From Escherichia coli (lineage in GTDB: Bacteria; Pseudomonadota; Gammaproteobacteria; Enterobacterales; Enterobacteriaceae): a stretch of 64,000 bases of DNA. Location: NCBI RefSeq assembly GCF_001677475.2, contig NZ_CP015229.1; one strand, given 5' to 3'. Below, piece by piece: positions 12,001 through 24,000 of the stretch. Each line of letters opens with the position of its first letter. The first letter of the stretch is position 1. The position numbers are program-made.

Positions 12001-15000
12001 CGATGGCTTCACCCTGCATCCGTTTACGCAGAGTACGTTTCGTACGGTCGATAACATCGCCCGCCAACTGTCCACAGGCAGCATCGATATCATCACCACG
12101 AGTTTTACGCACAATAGTGGTGAAACCGTAGCTCATCAGCACTTTTGAGAAACGGTCGATACGGCTGTTCGAACTGCGTCCATACGGCGCGCCAGGGAAC
12201 GGGTTCCACGGGATCAGGTTAATCTTACACGGCGTATCTTTCAGTAGCTCCGCCAGTTGGTGCGCGTGTTCAGTGCCGTCGTTAACGTGGTCAAGCATCA
12301 CGTATTCAATAGTGACTCGGCCCTGATTGGCGTTGGATTTCTCCAGATAACGGCGCACCGCAGCAAGGAACGTTTCGATATTGTACTTTTTGTTGATCGG
12401 CACAATTTCGTCACGAATTTCGTCGTTCGGCGCGTGCAGGGAAATTGCCAGTGCAACGTCGATCATATCGCCCAGTTTATCCAGCGCCGGAACTACACCG
12501 GAAGTGGAAAGCGTCACGCGACGTTTAGACAGGCCAAAACCGAAATCATCAAGCATGATTTCCATCGCCGGAACGACATTGTTCAGGTTGAGCAGCGGCT
12601 CGCCCATGCCCATCATCACTACGTTAGTGATTGGACGCTGACCGGTGACTTTTGCTGCGCCGACGATTTTCGCTGCACGCCACACCTGGCCGATAATTTC
12701 CGATACCCGCAGGTTGCGGTTAAAGCCCTGCTGGGCGGTGGAACAGAATTTACACTCCAGCGCACACCCCACCTGCGAAGAGACGCAGAGCGTTGCGCGG
12801 TCGTCTTCCGGGATATACACCGTTTCGACGCGTTGATCGCCAACGGCAATTGCCCATTTAATGGTGCCGTCAGATGAACGCTGTTCTTCAACCACTTCCG
12901 GTGCGCGGATTTCCGCCACCTCTTTCAGCTTGCCGCGCAACACTTTGTTGATGTCGGTCATCTCATCAAAGTTGTCGCAGCAATAGTGATACATCCACTT
13001 CATCACCTGATCGGCGCGGAAGGGTTTTTCACCTAAATCTTTAAAAAACTCCCGCATCTGCTGACGGTTGAGATCCAGCAGGTTGATTTTTCCATCTTTA
13101 GTGGTGACGTTTTCAGGTGTGACTAATTGTTCAGACATATGCTATTCCGGCCTCGTTATTACACGTTATGGCCCCTGGAGGGTTGAAAAAAGAAACGCCC
13201 CGGTGAGCGGCTGCTCGTCCGGGGGCGCTGCATTGTACAAATTCTGGCGCACGGATGCCACGTTTGCACGCGGCATTTACGAAATTATTAACGGGTGCGC
13301 GGGCACACTTCGCCTTCGCCGAAGAAATAAGCGATTTCGCGAGCGGCAGATTCGACGGAATCAGAACCGTGGGTACCATTTTCGGTCAGGCTGTCAGCGT
13401 AATCAGCACGCAGAGTACCGGCCAGTGCGTTTGCCGGATTGGTCGCGCCCAGCAGATCGCGGTGACGCTGAACGGCATTTTCACCTTCCAGCACGGAAAC
13501 CACGATCGGACCAGAGGTCATGAATTCAACCAGACCATCAAAGAACGGTTTTCCATCGTGTTCAGCATAAAAGCCACGAGCCTGTTCAACGGTCAGGTGC
13601 AGCATTTTGGTGCCGACAATTTTGAACCCTGCAGCTTCAAAGCGCGCAAAGATATTACCAATGACGTTTTTTGCTACCGCGTTCGGTTTGATGATGGAAA
13701 AAGTACGTTCAATAGCCATTTTTACCTCTGTAAATTGTTCTGTTGTTGTCTGTACCAGCGTACGAGATGGCGCGGATTATAATGAGCAACAGGGCCGTTG
13801 ACTATTGATGAAGGTAACATTTTTTTAAAATAAACCTAGTTTAAGCAACAATCAGGGACAAAACAGACTATTGCATGACAAATTTCACTGTCGCGATTTG
13901 CCCCACCTCATCCATCACCAGCAATTGATAATCGCCTTTATCCATCAAATGCAGGGTCACGTTGCGCCCGCGTTCAGTTAACGGTTCGCCATTCAGAAAC
14001 CACCAGCGTTCACCTGCCCCTCCACTTGATTGCAACGGCAAAGTCGCTTCCGCTGCGCCCGGTAAACGTTTAATAATCGCGCCATCGCGAACACCTGTCA
14101 GCTGCAGTGGGAGTTGTGCATCGTGACCGTATGGCGGGCAAATTGTCGAGGCCGCTGGTAAGCGCACAGCGCGACGTTCTGATGCGGGTAACCAGGGTTC
14201 CAGCGGTAGCGGCCAGACATTTATCATTTCTTGTCGCGCCTGAGGGCAATCAGCGGCAACACGTTTGCCGTTTTGATCCAGCCAGATGGGGAAACGAATG
14301 CCATTAATGCCTTCCTGCTCCGGCAGTAATAGAGTTGGCGGCTGACTCCCGTCCAGCAGCCAGGTTGCCAGGCGGCGGCGGCAGTTACCGTCACCTTCCG
14401 GCAAAGACTGTCCGCCCGGCCAGCAGATAACGCCACGACTTACAGAGTCAGGACGTGGGTCTTCCGGCAGATTCGCACTGCGCGACAGTAAGATATTATT
14501 GACCTGATTCAACAATGGTACGGCGCTGGCAAAGCCAAACTGACCAACAACGGGCGTGCCGTCCGGTCTGCCAGTCCAGATCCCAATGACATAGCGAGCG
14601 TTAACCCCAATCGCCCAGGCATCACGATAGCCATAGCTGGTGCCCGTTTTCCATGCCAGTGGGGCGACGCGCGGCAAGGCACCATCCGGCAAGGGTTGCG
14701 CTTCATCAGCCATAATCCGGCGAATGATCCACGCAGCCCCCGACGACATTAAAGGCCGTTCAAGCAGCGGATCGTCAGGCTGTAAGCGCAATTTACCAGC
14801 CTTGCCGTGGCGAGCAAACGCGGTATAGGCCGCCGCCATATCCCCCAGTTTTGCACCAGCGCCGCCGAGAATGAGCGAAAGATTCGGTGCAGCACCGTTG
14901 GGCAAATATAACGGCAATCCAACATTGCGTAACTTTGCAGCAAACCGTTTCGGCCCATAGGCTTCCAGCACCTGCACAGCAGGTAAGTTCAGCGAGCGCA

Positions 15001-21000: not shown

Positions 21001-24000
21001 CTGAACTCACGTTTTCTGAAGAGGCCGCTTTAGTAACTTCAGAAGGCGCATCTTTTTTCACCGCTGTTGGCGCGTTATCGTTGTTGTCGCACCCTGCCAG
21101 CGCCAGCATTAGCATGCAGGCGGCTACGCGTAACTTTTTCATTTTTCATCCCTGCCACAATGGCCCGTTAGCAACGTCGAATAATTATTATGCGTGAGAA
21201 TTTACGTTATGTAATTCAGTATCACGCCCATACAATCCGAATTTTAGTGAGAATTGTGGCTCAGACAGCCAAATCAGCCTCTTTTGCTTGTCGCCTTTCA
21301 CTAAACATCCGACAATTTAGCCTAACCCCGGCAAAAATGGAGATGCCTATGTCCACGACATGGTTTGTAGGAGCCGACTGGCTCGCCGAACATATTGATG
21401 ACCCGGAAATTCAGATTATCGATGCCCGCATGGCGTCGCCTGGACAGGAAGATCGTAACGTTGCTCAGGAGTATCTGAATGGACATATTCCCGGCGCAGT
21501 GTTTTTTGATATAGAAGCGCTTTCTGATCACACTTCCTCGCTTCCGCACATGCTGCCGCGCCCGGAAACGTTCGCCGTGGCGATGCGTGAATTAGGCATT
21601 AACCAGGATAAGCACCTGATTGTCTATGACGAAGGTAATCTTTTCTCAGCCCCACGAGCATGGTGGATGCTGCGCACCTTTGGTGTAGAGAAAGTGTCGA
21701 TTCTGGGGGGTGGACTTGCAGGCTGGCAGCGCGATGATCTGCTATTAGAAGAAGGCGCAGTAGAGCTGCCGGAAGGAGAGTTTAACGCCGCGTTTAATCC
21801 TGAAGCCGTGGTGAAAGTCACCGATGTGTTATTGGCAAGCCATGAAAATACGGCGCAAATTATTGATGCCCGCCCGGCTGCACGTTTTAACGCAGAAGTT
21901 GATGAGCCTCGCCCAGGTTTACGTCGCGGACATATTCCCGGTGCACTGAATGTTCCGTGGACGGAACTGGTGCGCGAAGGCGAACTAAAAACGACCGATG
22001 AACTGGATGCGATATTTTTTGGTCGCGGCGTCAGCTATGACAAACCAATTATTGTCAGTTGCGGCTCTGGTGTAACAGCAGCCGTGGTTTTGTTGGCACT
22101 CGCGACGCTGGATGTGCCAAACGTGAAACTGTACGACGGCGCATGGAGTGAATGGGGCGCACGGGCAGATTTACCGGTTGAGCCATTGAAATAAGCTTTT
22201 TACAGGCAATAAAAAACCGCCGAATTTGAACTGACCCCATAATGTTGGACGGTTTATATTAAGCGGCTATCAGGGCCTGGGTTCGGTACTCTACCGGACT
22301 CAGGCCTTTCAGTTTCTGTTTTATTCTTTCATGGTTGTAATAGTGGATGTAATTATCGATAGCCATGCGCAACTCGCTGATATTCTTGTGTTCCATCAGG
22401 TAAAAACACTCAGATTTCAGCGTGCCGAAGAAGCTTTCCATCACCGCATTGTCATGACAGTTCCCCTTCCTTGACATGCTCTGTTTCAGACCAGCCTCCT
22501 TAAGCCGGTTCTGATAATGCGCCATCTGATATTGCCAGCCCTGATCTGAGTGGAGCAGCGGGTATTCGTCTTTACCCAGTACAGATACAGCCTTCAACAG
22601 CATGTCATCCACCATCGACAGAAGAGGACGGGACGCCATCTGATACGCAACTATTTCTCCGTTATACAGATCCAGAACGGGGGACAGATACAGTTTTTCT
22701 CCGCTGATTTTAAATTCCGTGACATCTGTTACCCACTTCTGGTTGGGCTTATCCGCACTGAACTGCCGGTTCAGCACATTACCCGCCACTTTCCCATACC
22801 GGCCTCTGTAAGAGTTGTATTTCTTCCTTCTGATACAGCAGGTTAAATCTAACGCCTTCATTAACCTCTGAACCTTTTTATGGTTCAGTAAGCTTCCTTC
22901 CCGGCGGATAGCCAGCGTGATTCGCCTGTATCCATACCGTCCTTTATGTTTATGGAACAGCGTTAAAATCTGCCGCTTATCATCGGCATATTTGTCTGGT
23001 TTTTTACCGCTCGCCAGTTGCCAGTAGAACGTACTTCTCGCCAGCCCTGCCGCTTTTAACAAGCGCGCAAGAGGGAAGTCCGGCCTTAACTCATTCACGA
23101 TCTGCGTTTTATCCCGCGTTTTGACGTGCTTTTTTCCCTGAGCAAGGCCTGCAACTTTTTTAGATAAGCCACTTCAACACGCAGTTGTTCAAGTTCCTCT
23201 CGTTCATCATGGTTAAGAGGAGCCTGTAAAGAAGGTGCCGGGTTATTTTCAGGGCGTTCTGGCATCGTTTTTCTCCCGCGTCGGCTGTCAGTGAGGGCTT
23301 CTAATCCCCCTTCATCATACAGGCGTTCCCACAGAAGGACCGTGGAGAAAGCCGGAATAGTGAATTTTGCACAGACTTCGCGAACAGACAACCGGTGCTC
23401 ACGCATATGCAGGATAACGGACTCTTTAAAGACGGGAGAATAGGCGAAATGCCGGGTGGTAAGTCCGGCTTCGCCATGAAGCTTCCAGGCAGCAGTCCAC
23501 TTACGAACGGCACTGTGATCGATACCAAAACGCTTTGCAGTCGCTTTCTGCCCTTCCATGCCGGAAAGATAGTGCTGCACAACCTCAAGCTTAAAGCTGA
23601 GAGAATATTTACTCATAAAAAACTGCACCTTACTTCGTTGAGTGTCCAACTTTTGGGGTGCAGTTCAAATTTGGCGGTTTTTTATTGCTGGTCTGGTTCG
23701 CGGCCTTTCCAGCAGGTTGACTTGTGTTGCCGGAGCAACGCAGGCACCCCACAGTGCTTGCTATCGCGGCAATATCGCCAGTGGTGCTGTCGTGATGCGG
23801 TCTTCGCATGGACCGCACAATGAAGATACGGTGCTTTTGTATCGTACTTATTGTTTCTGGTGCGCTGTTAACCGAGGTAAATAATAACCGGAGTCTCTCC
23901 GGCAACAATTTATTGGTGGTTAACAACCTTCAGAACAGCAGGTAAGCCCGAATGCCGCCCTTTGGGGCGGCATATTTTAGATTATCCGGTTCTGTTTAAA

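Follow-up and report, generated by a model that had tools for sequence, protein, structure and literature searches.

The Escherichia coli contig NZ_CP015229.1 (assembly GCF_001677475.2), of which a stretch of 64,000 nucleotides (nt) was analysed here and is called the window below, carries on its minus strand yfhM, the gene for a bacterial alpha-2-macroglobulin (A2M), and directly after it pbpC, the gene for the peptidoglycan synthase PBP1C. Not one nucleotide separates the two genes, and the question that such a junction raises is whether the two proteins are made together or in unequal amounts; the initial annotation described translational coupling. We find within the first codons of pbpC a strong hairpin that is conserved, with covariation, across the Enterobacteriaceae. 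Our preferred reading, to which we give a probability of roughly 60%, is that this hairpin serves as a partial intrinsic terminator in both directions, lying within the codons of the PBP1C signal anchor, and that, together with re-initiation of translation at a start codon that has no Shine-Dalgarno (SD) sequence, it keeps PBP1C well below YfhM.

A conserved hairpin within the first codons of pbpC

The hairpin, identified by terminator scan, folding and covariation, occupies pbpC nt +22 to +51 (16130..16159, minus strand), and its first base lies 21 nt beyond the pbpC ATG. Its 5′ arm CGCGGCUGCUGG (16159..16148), loop AUAACG (16147..16142) and 3′ arm CUGGCAGCCGCG (16141..16130), all on the minus strand, form a stem of 12 bp, nine of them G-C, from the codons for R-G-C-W-I-T-L-A-A-A in the N-terminal tail and signal anchor of PBP1C. 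In the window it folds at −23.9 kcal/mol (z = −4.1), which none of 200 shuffled sequences equalled, and it is the most stable 40-nt fold of the entire 7.5-kb yfhM-pbpC transcript. It is present once in the 64-kb window, and a repeat element of the repetitive extragenic palindromic (REP) kind is ruled out by that single copy. No Rfam 15 family matches either strand of 13500..21500 at E ≤ 1. Full-text searches on yfhM, pbpC and the A2M operon yielded no description of a hairpin at this junction; the element appears in the literature searched only as an uncommented row of a supplementary table (PMC10687069).

Species-representative genomes were scanned with the C-terminus of YfhM, which gave 77 loci, essentially all from Enterobacteriaceae, 73 of them with usable sequence. 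The hairpin folds in every one of these 73 Enterobacteriaceae species, at −24.8 kcal/mol on average over 54-nt segments; it is the top local structure within 3.8 kb in 34 of them and among the top three in 51. The helix was tested on an alignment of 74 sequences, the controls being 3′ partners slid by 1–3 columns and 500 shuffles. Stem cells form standard pairs in 95.5% of cases, compared with 33–59% when the partners are slid. Nine of the 12 stem pairs show double-sided changes (158 cells), with 29 additional pair types, and the covariation score of 0.492 (0.175 for the shuffles) was reached in none of the 500. RNAalifold independently recovers the core of the hairpin and finds nothing conserved around the stop and start codons. 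A conserved anti-terminator or a helix occluding the ribosome-binding site (RBS) is rejected by the same result, in that only the single-sequence fold pairs the AUG region.

The encoded peptide differs by genus, being KRGCWITLAAAPF in E. coli, KRRWRWLAAFIF in Klebsiella and RSRWLWLAGALL in Enterobacter (KRGCWITLAAA, KRRWRWLAAF and RSRWLWLAGA), and the residues of one arm vary in step with those of the other (Ser/Gly, Gly/Ala, Cys/Ala and Lys/Phe). Judged from the alignment, such correlated changes make sense only at the level of the RNA. Compensatory double substitutions occur even inside Escherichia, in E. whittamii and E. albertii. Among the variable pairs, 40 cells hold G·U or U·G but only 3 hold A·C or C·A; the selected fold is therefore that of the mRNA strand, not that of the DNA and not that of an antisense RNA. 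Third-position entropy is lowered in stem codons 8–10 and 15–16, for example to 0.0 at Ser9, 0.28 at Arg10 and 0.47 at Leu15, where 1.3–1.8 is typical for such codons.

The U-rich tail and RNA 3′ ends at the hairpin

The stem is followed by a pyrimidine- and U-rich tail, CCCUUUAUUAUCAUU, which makes up pbpC codons 18–22 (16115..16129, minus strand) and was characterized by sequence scan, codon usage and tail score; the sequence after the stem in the window reads CCCUUUAUUAUC, CCCUUUAUUA. Codon choice in this region leans towards U. The five codons past the stem hold 502 U where the codon usage of each gene would predict 432, and CUG accounts for 19% of the tail's leucine codons but for 52% elsewhere in pbpC. 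A TransTermHP-style tail score of −2.5 or lower is found in 52% of species and in 14% of windows of coding sequence. Canonical U-tracts are present in Klebsiella (AAACGCCGC...GCGGCGUUUAUUUUU) and in loci L084 and L086. Relatives in which 6–13 nt separate the A2M gene from pbpC keep a hairpin at +19 to +23, with U-rich tails; where the spacer is 116 nt long, in one relative, its place is taken by a canonical intergenic terminator, AUGCCCUUAUA...UAUAAGGGCAUUUUUAUCUU. Some terminator-like structure between A2M and pbpC thus seems, by sequence, to recur in the closer relatives; none is evident in L087, and Pseudomonas-type loci have REP-like palindromes instead.

The hairpin and its tail lie in a variable part of the gene. 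In comparison with K-12, 12 of 13 differences in 221 nt fall within pbpC nt +8 to +75 (16105..16173), a local divergence hotspot, and one of them is in the stem, where a G·U pair is kept. Identity above 95% over 16100..16260 was found in just 1 of 4408 matching E. coli genomes. The tail CCCTTTATTATCATT agrees with the non-K-12 Escherichia representatives (L002–L004 and L006) and not with K-12. The hotspot may be a recombination patch or reflect relaxed protein constraint.

For a terminator at this position, a K-12 RNA 3′ end had been predicted beforehand at about 2647258–2647272 on the minus strand. The 3′ ends were taken from the TRS Supplementary Data 2 of PMC10687069 (K-12 MG1655, exponential growth in LB medium, RNAtag-seq, three replicates), whose signal, L/(L+D), is one minus the local read-through and by its method does not tell termination from processing. 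This table has a minus-strand terminus at 2647264–2647273, with its dominant position at 2647267, a signal of 0.52, and adjusted p-values of 1, 0.0029 and 0.0011, significant in two of the three replicates (PMC10687069). The K-12 stem lies at 2647304..2647275 and the pbpC ATG at 2647325, which places the sense 3′ end at pbpC nt +59, 8 nt past the stem. Because the signal equals one minus local read-through, a value of 0.52 means that read-through is substantial. By homology from K-12, the sense 3′ end is expected in the window at 16119..16128 (minus strand), with the dominant position at 16122, again pbpC nt +59.

On the opposite strand the same table lists a terminus at 2647307–2647316, dominant at 2647311, with a signal of 0.965 and p-values of 3.7e-27, 0 and 1.8e-9 (PMC10687069). 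Its expected counterpart in the window, also by homology, is 16162..16171 (plus strand), dominant at 16166, 7 nt past the hairpin's other side. In K-12, RNA 3′ ends thus flank the hairpin on either side, the pattern of a bidirectional terminator, and mark the end of an antisense RNA, corresponding to about 15900..16171 (plus strand) of the window, that is not annotated. A candidate promoter for such an RNA, TTGCCA-16-GAGAAT, lies at 15866..15893 (plus strand); it is a consensus match of 9/12 and is present in the same place in K-12. An open reading frame for 145 aa runs antisense to pbpC at 15731..16168 (plus strand), and its stop codon (16166..16168) coincides exactly with the position of the antisense terminator; the frame has probably arisen by chance in GC-rich antisense sequence.

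The stop-start junction and its surroundings

The minus strand reads 5′-...GTC AGA CCG TAA ATG CCT CGT...-3′ at the junction. The yfhM stop codon TAA (16181..16183) abuts the pbpC start codon ATG (16178..16180, both minus strand), with a spacer of 0 nt and no overlap, just as the initial annotation had read it. K-12 is annotated in the same abutting way (pbpC ends at 2647325 and yfhM begins at 2647326), and comparison with other Enterobacteriaceae extends the observation: pbpC follows yfhM directly in 73/73 usable species, with a spacer of 0 nt (TAA|ATG) or 1 nt (TAA N ATG/GTG). The first form is that of Escherichia, Citrobacter, Salmonella, Klebsiella and Raoultella; TAA-N-ATG or TAA-N-GTG is that of Enterobacter, Leclercia, Lelliottia, Trabulsiella, Silvania and Pseudescherichia, and several lineages use a GTG start. 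Since the spacer is 0–1 nt in all of these species, while in distant relatives it is 6 to 651 nt, the adjacency goes beyond chance.

No SD sequence precedes the pbpC start, as judged from the junction sequence and the anti-SD energy. Anti-SD complementarity before pbpC is absent in all 73 species (mean duplex energy +0.38 kcal/mol, best −2.2, none at or below −4), while 27% of random coding positions in the same genes reach −4 or lower, and SD-like sequence is thus depleted before pbpC. In the window the duplex energy is +0.4 kcal/mol for pbpC, compared with −6.0 for the RBS of yfhM itself. An internal pbpC promoter may exist but found no support: the sequence scan of the window picks out nothing resembling a sigma-70 promoter on the minus strand towards the 3′ end of yfhM, and the last 60 yfhM codons show no synonymous-site constraint, being as variable as elsewhere. 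The K-12 sense 3′-end signal of 0.52 implies read-through. Given spacers of 0–1 nt and the lack of an SD sequence in 73/73 species, it is plausible that pbpC is translated by termination–re-initiation coupling with yfhM. The coupling proposed by the initial annotation holds to this extent, that the adjacency is real and conserved and the sequence fits termination–re-initiation; coupling as such is read from the sequence, and the dominant hairpin of the junction had been overlooked. Simple co-expression fits less well, in that the hairpin coincides with K-12 RNA 3′ ends and the two genes appear partly uncoupled at the transcript level.

The locus is otherwise a typical one. The yfhM coding sequence (16181..21142, minus strand; reading-frame listing, Pfam and E. 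coli annotation) encodes a type I bacterial A2M lipoprotein of 1653 aa, with a LAGC lipobox at residues 15–18 and Asp at +2, a CLEQ thioester motif at residue 1187 (about 17573..17584), and the Pfam domains bMG1, bMG2, bMG3, MG2, bMG5, bMG6, the bait-region domain (A2M_BRD), A2M, TED, CUB and bMG10. The pbpC coding sequence (13868..16180, minus strand; reading-frame listing and Pfam) encodes PBP1C, 770 aa, with Transgly (GT51 transglycosylase), Transpeptidase and BiPBP_C domains and the motifs EDRWFWKHPG, SVLK, SLN and KTG. This is a type I bacterial A2M-PBP1C locus, with a lipoprotein A2M carrying CxEQ and an adjacent class A penicillin-binding protein carrying BiPBP_C. The pairing of an A2M with a peptidoglycan synthase, which the initial annotation had recognised, agrees with the Pfam identities and is well documented in PMC3328433, PMC4498604 and PMC3735191, all of which cite Budd 2004; compared with the type I A2M/PBP1C pair as these papers present it (Budd 2004), a lipoprotein A2M with CLEQ followed by pbpC, the locus has no protein-level difference. 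The A2M-PBP1C literature searched describes juxtaposition or an operon, and neither the anatomy of the junction nor the hairpin. The locus was found in 5425 of 5426 complete E. coli genomes, the region is 97.2% identical to K-12, and the gene order sseA | yfhM pbpC ndk rlmN rodZ is usual for the species. The arrangement is ordinary E. coli, and the junction itself was already known from annotation.

Upstream, a candidate yfhM promoter, ATTACA-17-CATAAT (21187..21215, minus strand; a 9/12 consensus match), lies in the divergent sseA-yfhM spacer. A site for the extracytoplasmic-stress sigma factor is placed inside yfhM near its 5′ end (K-12-type coordinate 2649866) by genomic SELEX, an in vitro selection of bound DNA (PMC5493296), and hints at envelope-stress control of the yfhM locus or of the divergent sseA. 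Downstream, no terminator-like hairpin was found after the pbpC stop and before ndk (13720..13867, minus strand), and the K-12 3′-end table has no terminus between pbpC and ndk. There is an ndk promoter-like site at 13804..13776. Transcripts that read through pbpC may continue towards ndk.

A2M-pbpC pairs in general are not so tightly joined. Relatives whose A2M C-termini are 46–62% identical have spacers of 6, 10, 13, 49, 116, 325 and 458–651 nt; the 325-nt spacer is that of Yersinia enterocolitica and the spacers of 458–651 nt are Pseudomonas-type, with an opposite-strand reading frame between the genes, and loose junctions of 49 to 651 nt are thus found in Yersinia, Pseudomonas and others. 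Several of the loci sampled have peculiarities of their own. The Y. enterocolitica spacer (L082, 1487..1811) holds long inverted repeats, AGACTCACTCCCC...GGGGGTAAAGACTCACTCCCC, and a hairpin, GCCGCGCCATATATGGCGCGGAC, and looks like an inserted repeat element. In Pseudomonas syringae (L081, 4608..4720) a tandem (TTGATTGG)n repeat stands directly after the A2M stop; the opposite-strand frame, for 97 aa, is present in L081, L088 and L089, the latter two also having REP-like palindromes. A contig labelled Chryseobacterium sp. 18061 (L033) has an Enterobacteriaceae-type yfhM-pbpC nearly identical to L024, and a 266-bp contig labelled Nocardioides malaquae (L075) encodes a 94% E. coli-like YfhM; in both cases a contaminated or mislabelled public assembly is the probable cause. 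Trabulsiella odontotermitis (L023) is missing about 190 nt of the pbpC 5′ end, including the hairpin, and has N at the junction, which may be an assembly artefact or a real deletion.

Proposed partial termination, its alternatives and its meaning

In the mechanism that we propose, yfhM and pbpC would be transcribed as a unit, with expression of the second gene lowered in two ways. Having no RBS of its own, pbpC would be translated mainly by ribosomes that end on yfhM and re-initiate inefficiently. The GC-rich hairpin 21 nt into the gene and the pyrimidine/U-rich tract would in addition act as a partial intrinsic terminator: some transcripts would end about 8 nt after the 12-bp stem, as yfhM-only mRNAs protected by a 3′ hairpin, and the others would continue into pbpC. 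We infer that the sense 3′ end arises by intrinsic termination rather than by trimming. For lack of intergenic space, the terminator would occupy the codons for the N-terminal tail and signal anchor of PBP1C: Arg/Lys/Ser/Gly codons from the tail pair with Ala/Phe/Gly codons from the membrane helix, and the arms co-evolve. The yfhM stop codon is 24 nt upstream of the stem, and a ribosome on the stop or start codon does not reach that far; because it leaves the stem uncovered, the hairpin could form behind the polymerase whatever the translation of yfhM. The same hairpin would also halt an antisense transcript coming from inside pbpC. YfhM would presumably be made in excess over PBP1C. The rows listed in Mori 2021, which stop short of yfhM, hold only zeros for PbpC. 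One may speculate that SD sequences are depleted because ribosomes re-initiating on terminated transcripts would meet a 3′ end without a stop codon.

A number of observations weigh against partial termination. The U-tract of E. coli is imperfect, with CCC ahead of the U's, a simple terminator scan does not call the K-12 hairpin, and tails are poor in Pseudescherichia and in the C. freundii group; because the E. coli tract is imperfect and some genera have poor tails, the hairpin is better conserved than the tail. Richness in U is partly expected in a region that codes for a membrane helix, and the bias in codon choice close to gene starts may confound the count. The sense 3′ end is modestly supported, coming from one data set with one replicate not significant, and it could come from exonuclease trimming back to the hairpin; the supplementary tables of Adams 2021 and Yan 2018 have no yfhM/pbpC entry or coordinate match. 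Finally, the species are related, and the cell counts given above overstate the number of independent events.

The main alternative, clearly less probable than partial termination but the one with the most in its favour, is that the hairpin is a 3′-end stabiliser or processing barrier: an endonuclease would cut downstream, 3′-5′ exonucleases would stop at the stem, and the yfhM message would be protected. The expression outcome would be the same, YfhM above PBP1C, reached after transcription. A stem conserved more strictly than the U-tail, an E. coli tail that begins with CCC, and the inability of RNAtag-seq to separate termination from processing all suit this explanation. It accounts less well for 3′ ends 8 nt (sense) and 7 nt (antisense) past the stem, which is the usual distance for intrinsic termination, for the synonymous preference for U in the tail, for the canonical U-tracts of Klebsiella, L084 and L086, and for the canonical intergenic terminator at the equivalent place in one relative.

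We regard it as rather unlikely that the hairpin acts jointly with the SD-less TAAATG as an attenuator that senses translation, the stop of RNA polymerase at +59 then depending on timely arrival of a re-initiating ribosome. Were this true, the YfhM:PBP1C ratio would be set by the efficiency of re-initiation and possibly be shifted under envelope or translation stress, the antisense RNA that ends at the hairpin would add a further layer, and a conserved switch would lie wholly inside signal-anchor codons.

Slightly more doubtful still is a role in translation itself, by which the hairpin, placed just past the footprint of a ribosome on the stop or start codon, would either hold a post-termination ribosome near the AUG, which would favour re-initiation, or slow early elongation, which would lower PBP1C. 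The start of the hairpin is indeed fixed at +19 to +23 across the junction types, and pbpC has no SD sequence. The fixed distance also follows from the layout of the protein, however, a short basic tail and then a membrane helix; moreover the hairpin persists where the spacer is SD-like (L083 and L084), equivalent structures in L080 lie upstream of the pbpC RBS, and the mapped RNA 3′ ends and the U-biased tail would be left unexplained.

It is improbable, too, that the element serves mainly to block antisense transcription from pbpC into yfhM, with the sense 3′ end as a by-product. The antisense 3′ end is much the stronger of the two in K-12 (0.965, p down to 1e-27), many species have an A-tract ahead of the stem, and a promoter-like site lies about 270 nt upstream on the plus strand; against this, tolerance of G·U and not of A·C (40 versus 3 cells) points to selection on the sense-strand fold, the top three pairs become wobbles or are lost on the antisense strand, and Enterobacter-type sequences lack the A-tract needed for an antisense U-tail. 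Least credible of all is plain coupling and co-expression with the hairpin as a coding by-product of basic-tail codons that complement Ala/Leu helix codons: Arg CGC/Ala GCG and Lys AAA/Phe UUU are reverse complements, which gives signal anchors a built-in pairing potential, but the arm residues change in correlation (S-G, G-A, C-A) with no evident protein-level reason, nine of 12 pairs show double changes with 95.5% paired versus at most 59% when slid, the synonymous sites of the stem are constrained, RNA ends map to it, and the covariation appears effectively to exclude a pure by-product.

Taken as a partial terminator, the element has several known counterparts. Internal partial terminators such as the rpsU-dnaG terminator and the rplL-rpoB attenuator set the ratios of cistrons, and the yfhM-pbpC element resembles them in its GC-rich stem, its U-rich if imperfect tail, partial read-through (0.52) and 3′ end 8 nt past the stem. 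It differs in lying entirely within the N-tail and signal-anchor codons of the downstream gene, without intergenic space, and in its family-wide conservation, with covariation. Bidirectional intrinsic terminators have reportedly been described by SEnd-seq (Ju et al. 2019, as cited in PMC10687069); as in these, a single hairpin has 3′ ends 7–8 nt beyond it on both strands, but the pbpC hairpin does not lie between convergent genes, its antisense partner is unannotated, and its base-pair pattern indicates selection on the sense strand only. Termination–re-initiation coupling is exemplified by trpE-trpD and by the trpB-trpA UGAUG. The likeness here, known from sequence, is in a stop and start within 0–1 nt, a downstream gene without an SD sequence and a conserved junction; unlike the trp pairs, yfhM-pbpC has a 0-nt TAAATG instead of a 1- or 4-nt overlap, and the terminator would remove part of the pbpC template. 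REP or stem-loop elements stabilise mRNA within operons, as at malE-malF, and there too the upstream cistron ends in a stable hairpin that would favour its expression over that of the downstream one, whereas the pbpC hairpin is single-copy, in coding sequence and of no repeat family. Terminators of an upstream gene inside the next coding sequence are mentioned for pmrR and mgtT in PMC10687069. Internal, bidirectional and coding-sequence-embedded terminators are all known, and no new principle is involved.

The hairpin is unannotated, and it is carried along in constructs that clone pbpC from its ATG and in yfhM deletions that keep the junction. It also provides a clear case of RNA structure constraining a protein: since their codons have to pair, the tail of PBP1C and the beginning of its membrane helix co-vary. 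A2M and PBP1C are commonly referred to as a "defence and repair" unit with joint expression. The anatomy of the junction suggests that a built-in terminator and weak re-initiation lead to unequal amounts instead, which would bear on models that assume a stoichiometric YfhM-PBP1C complex.

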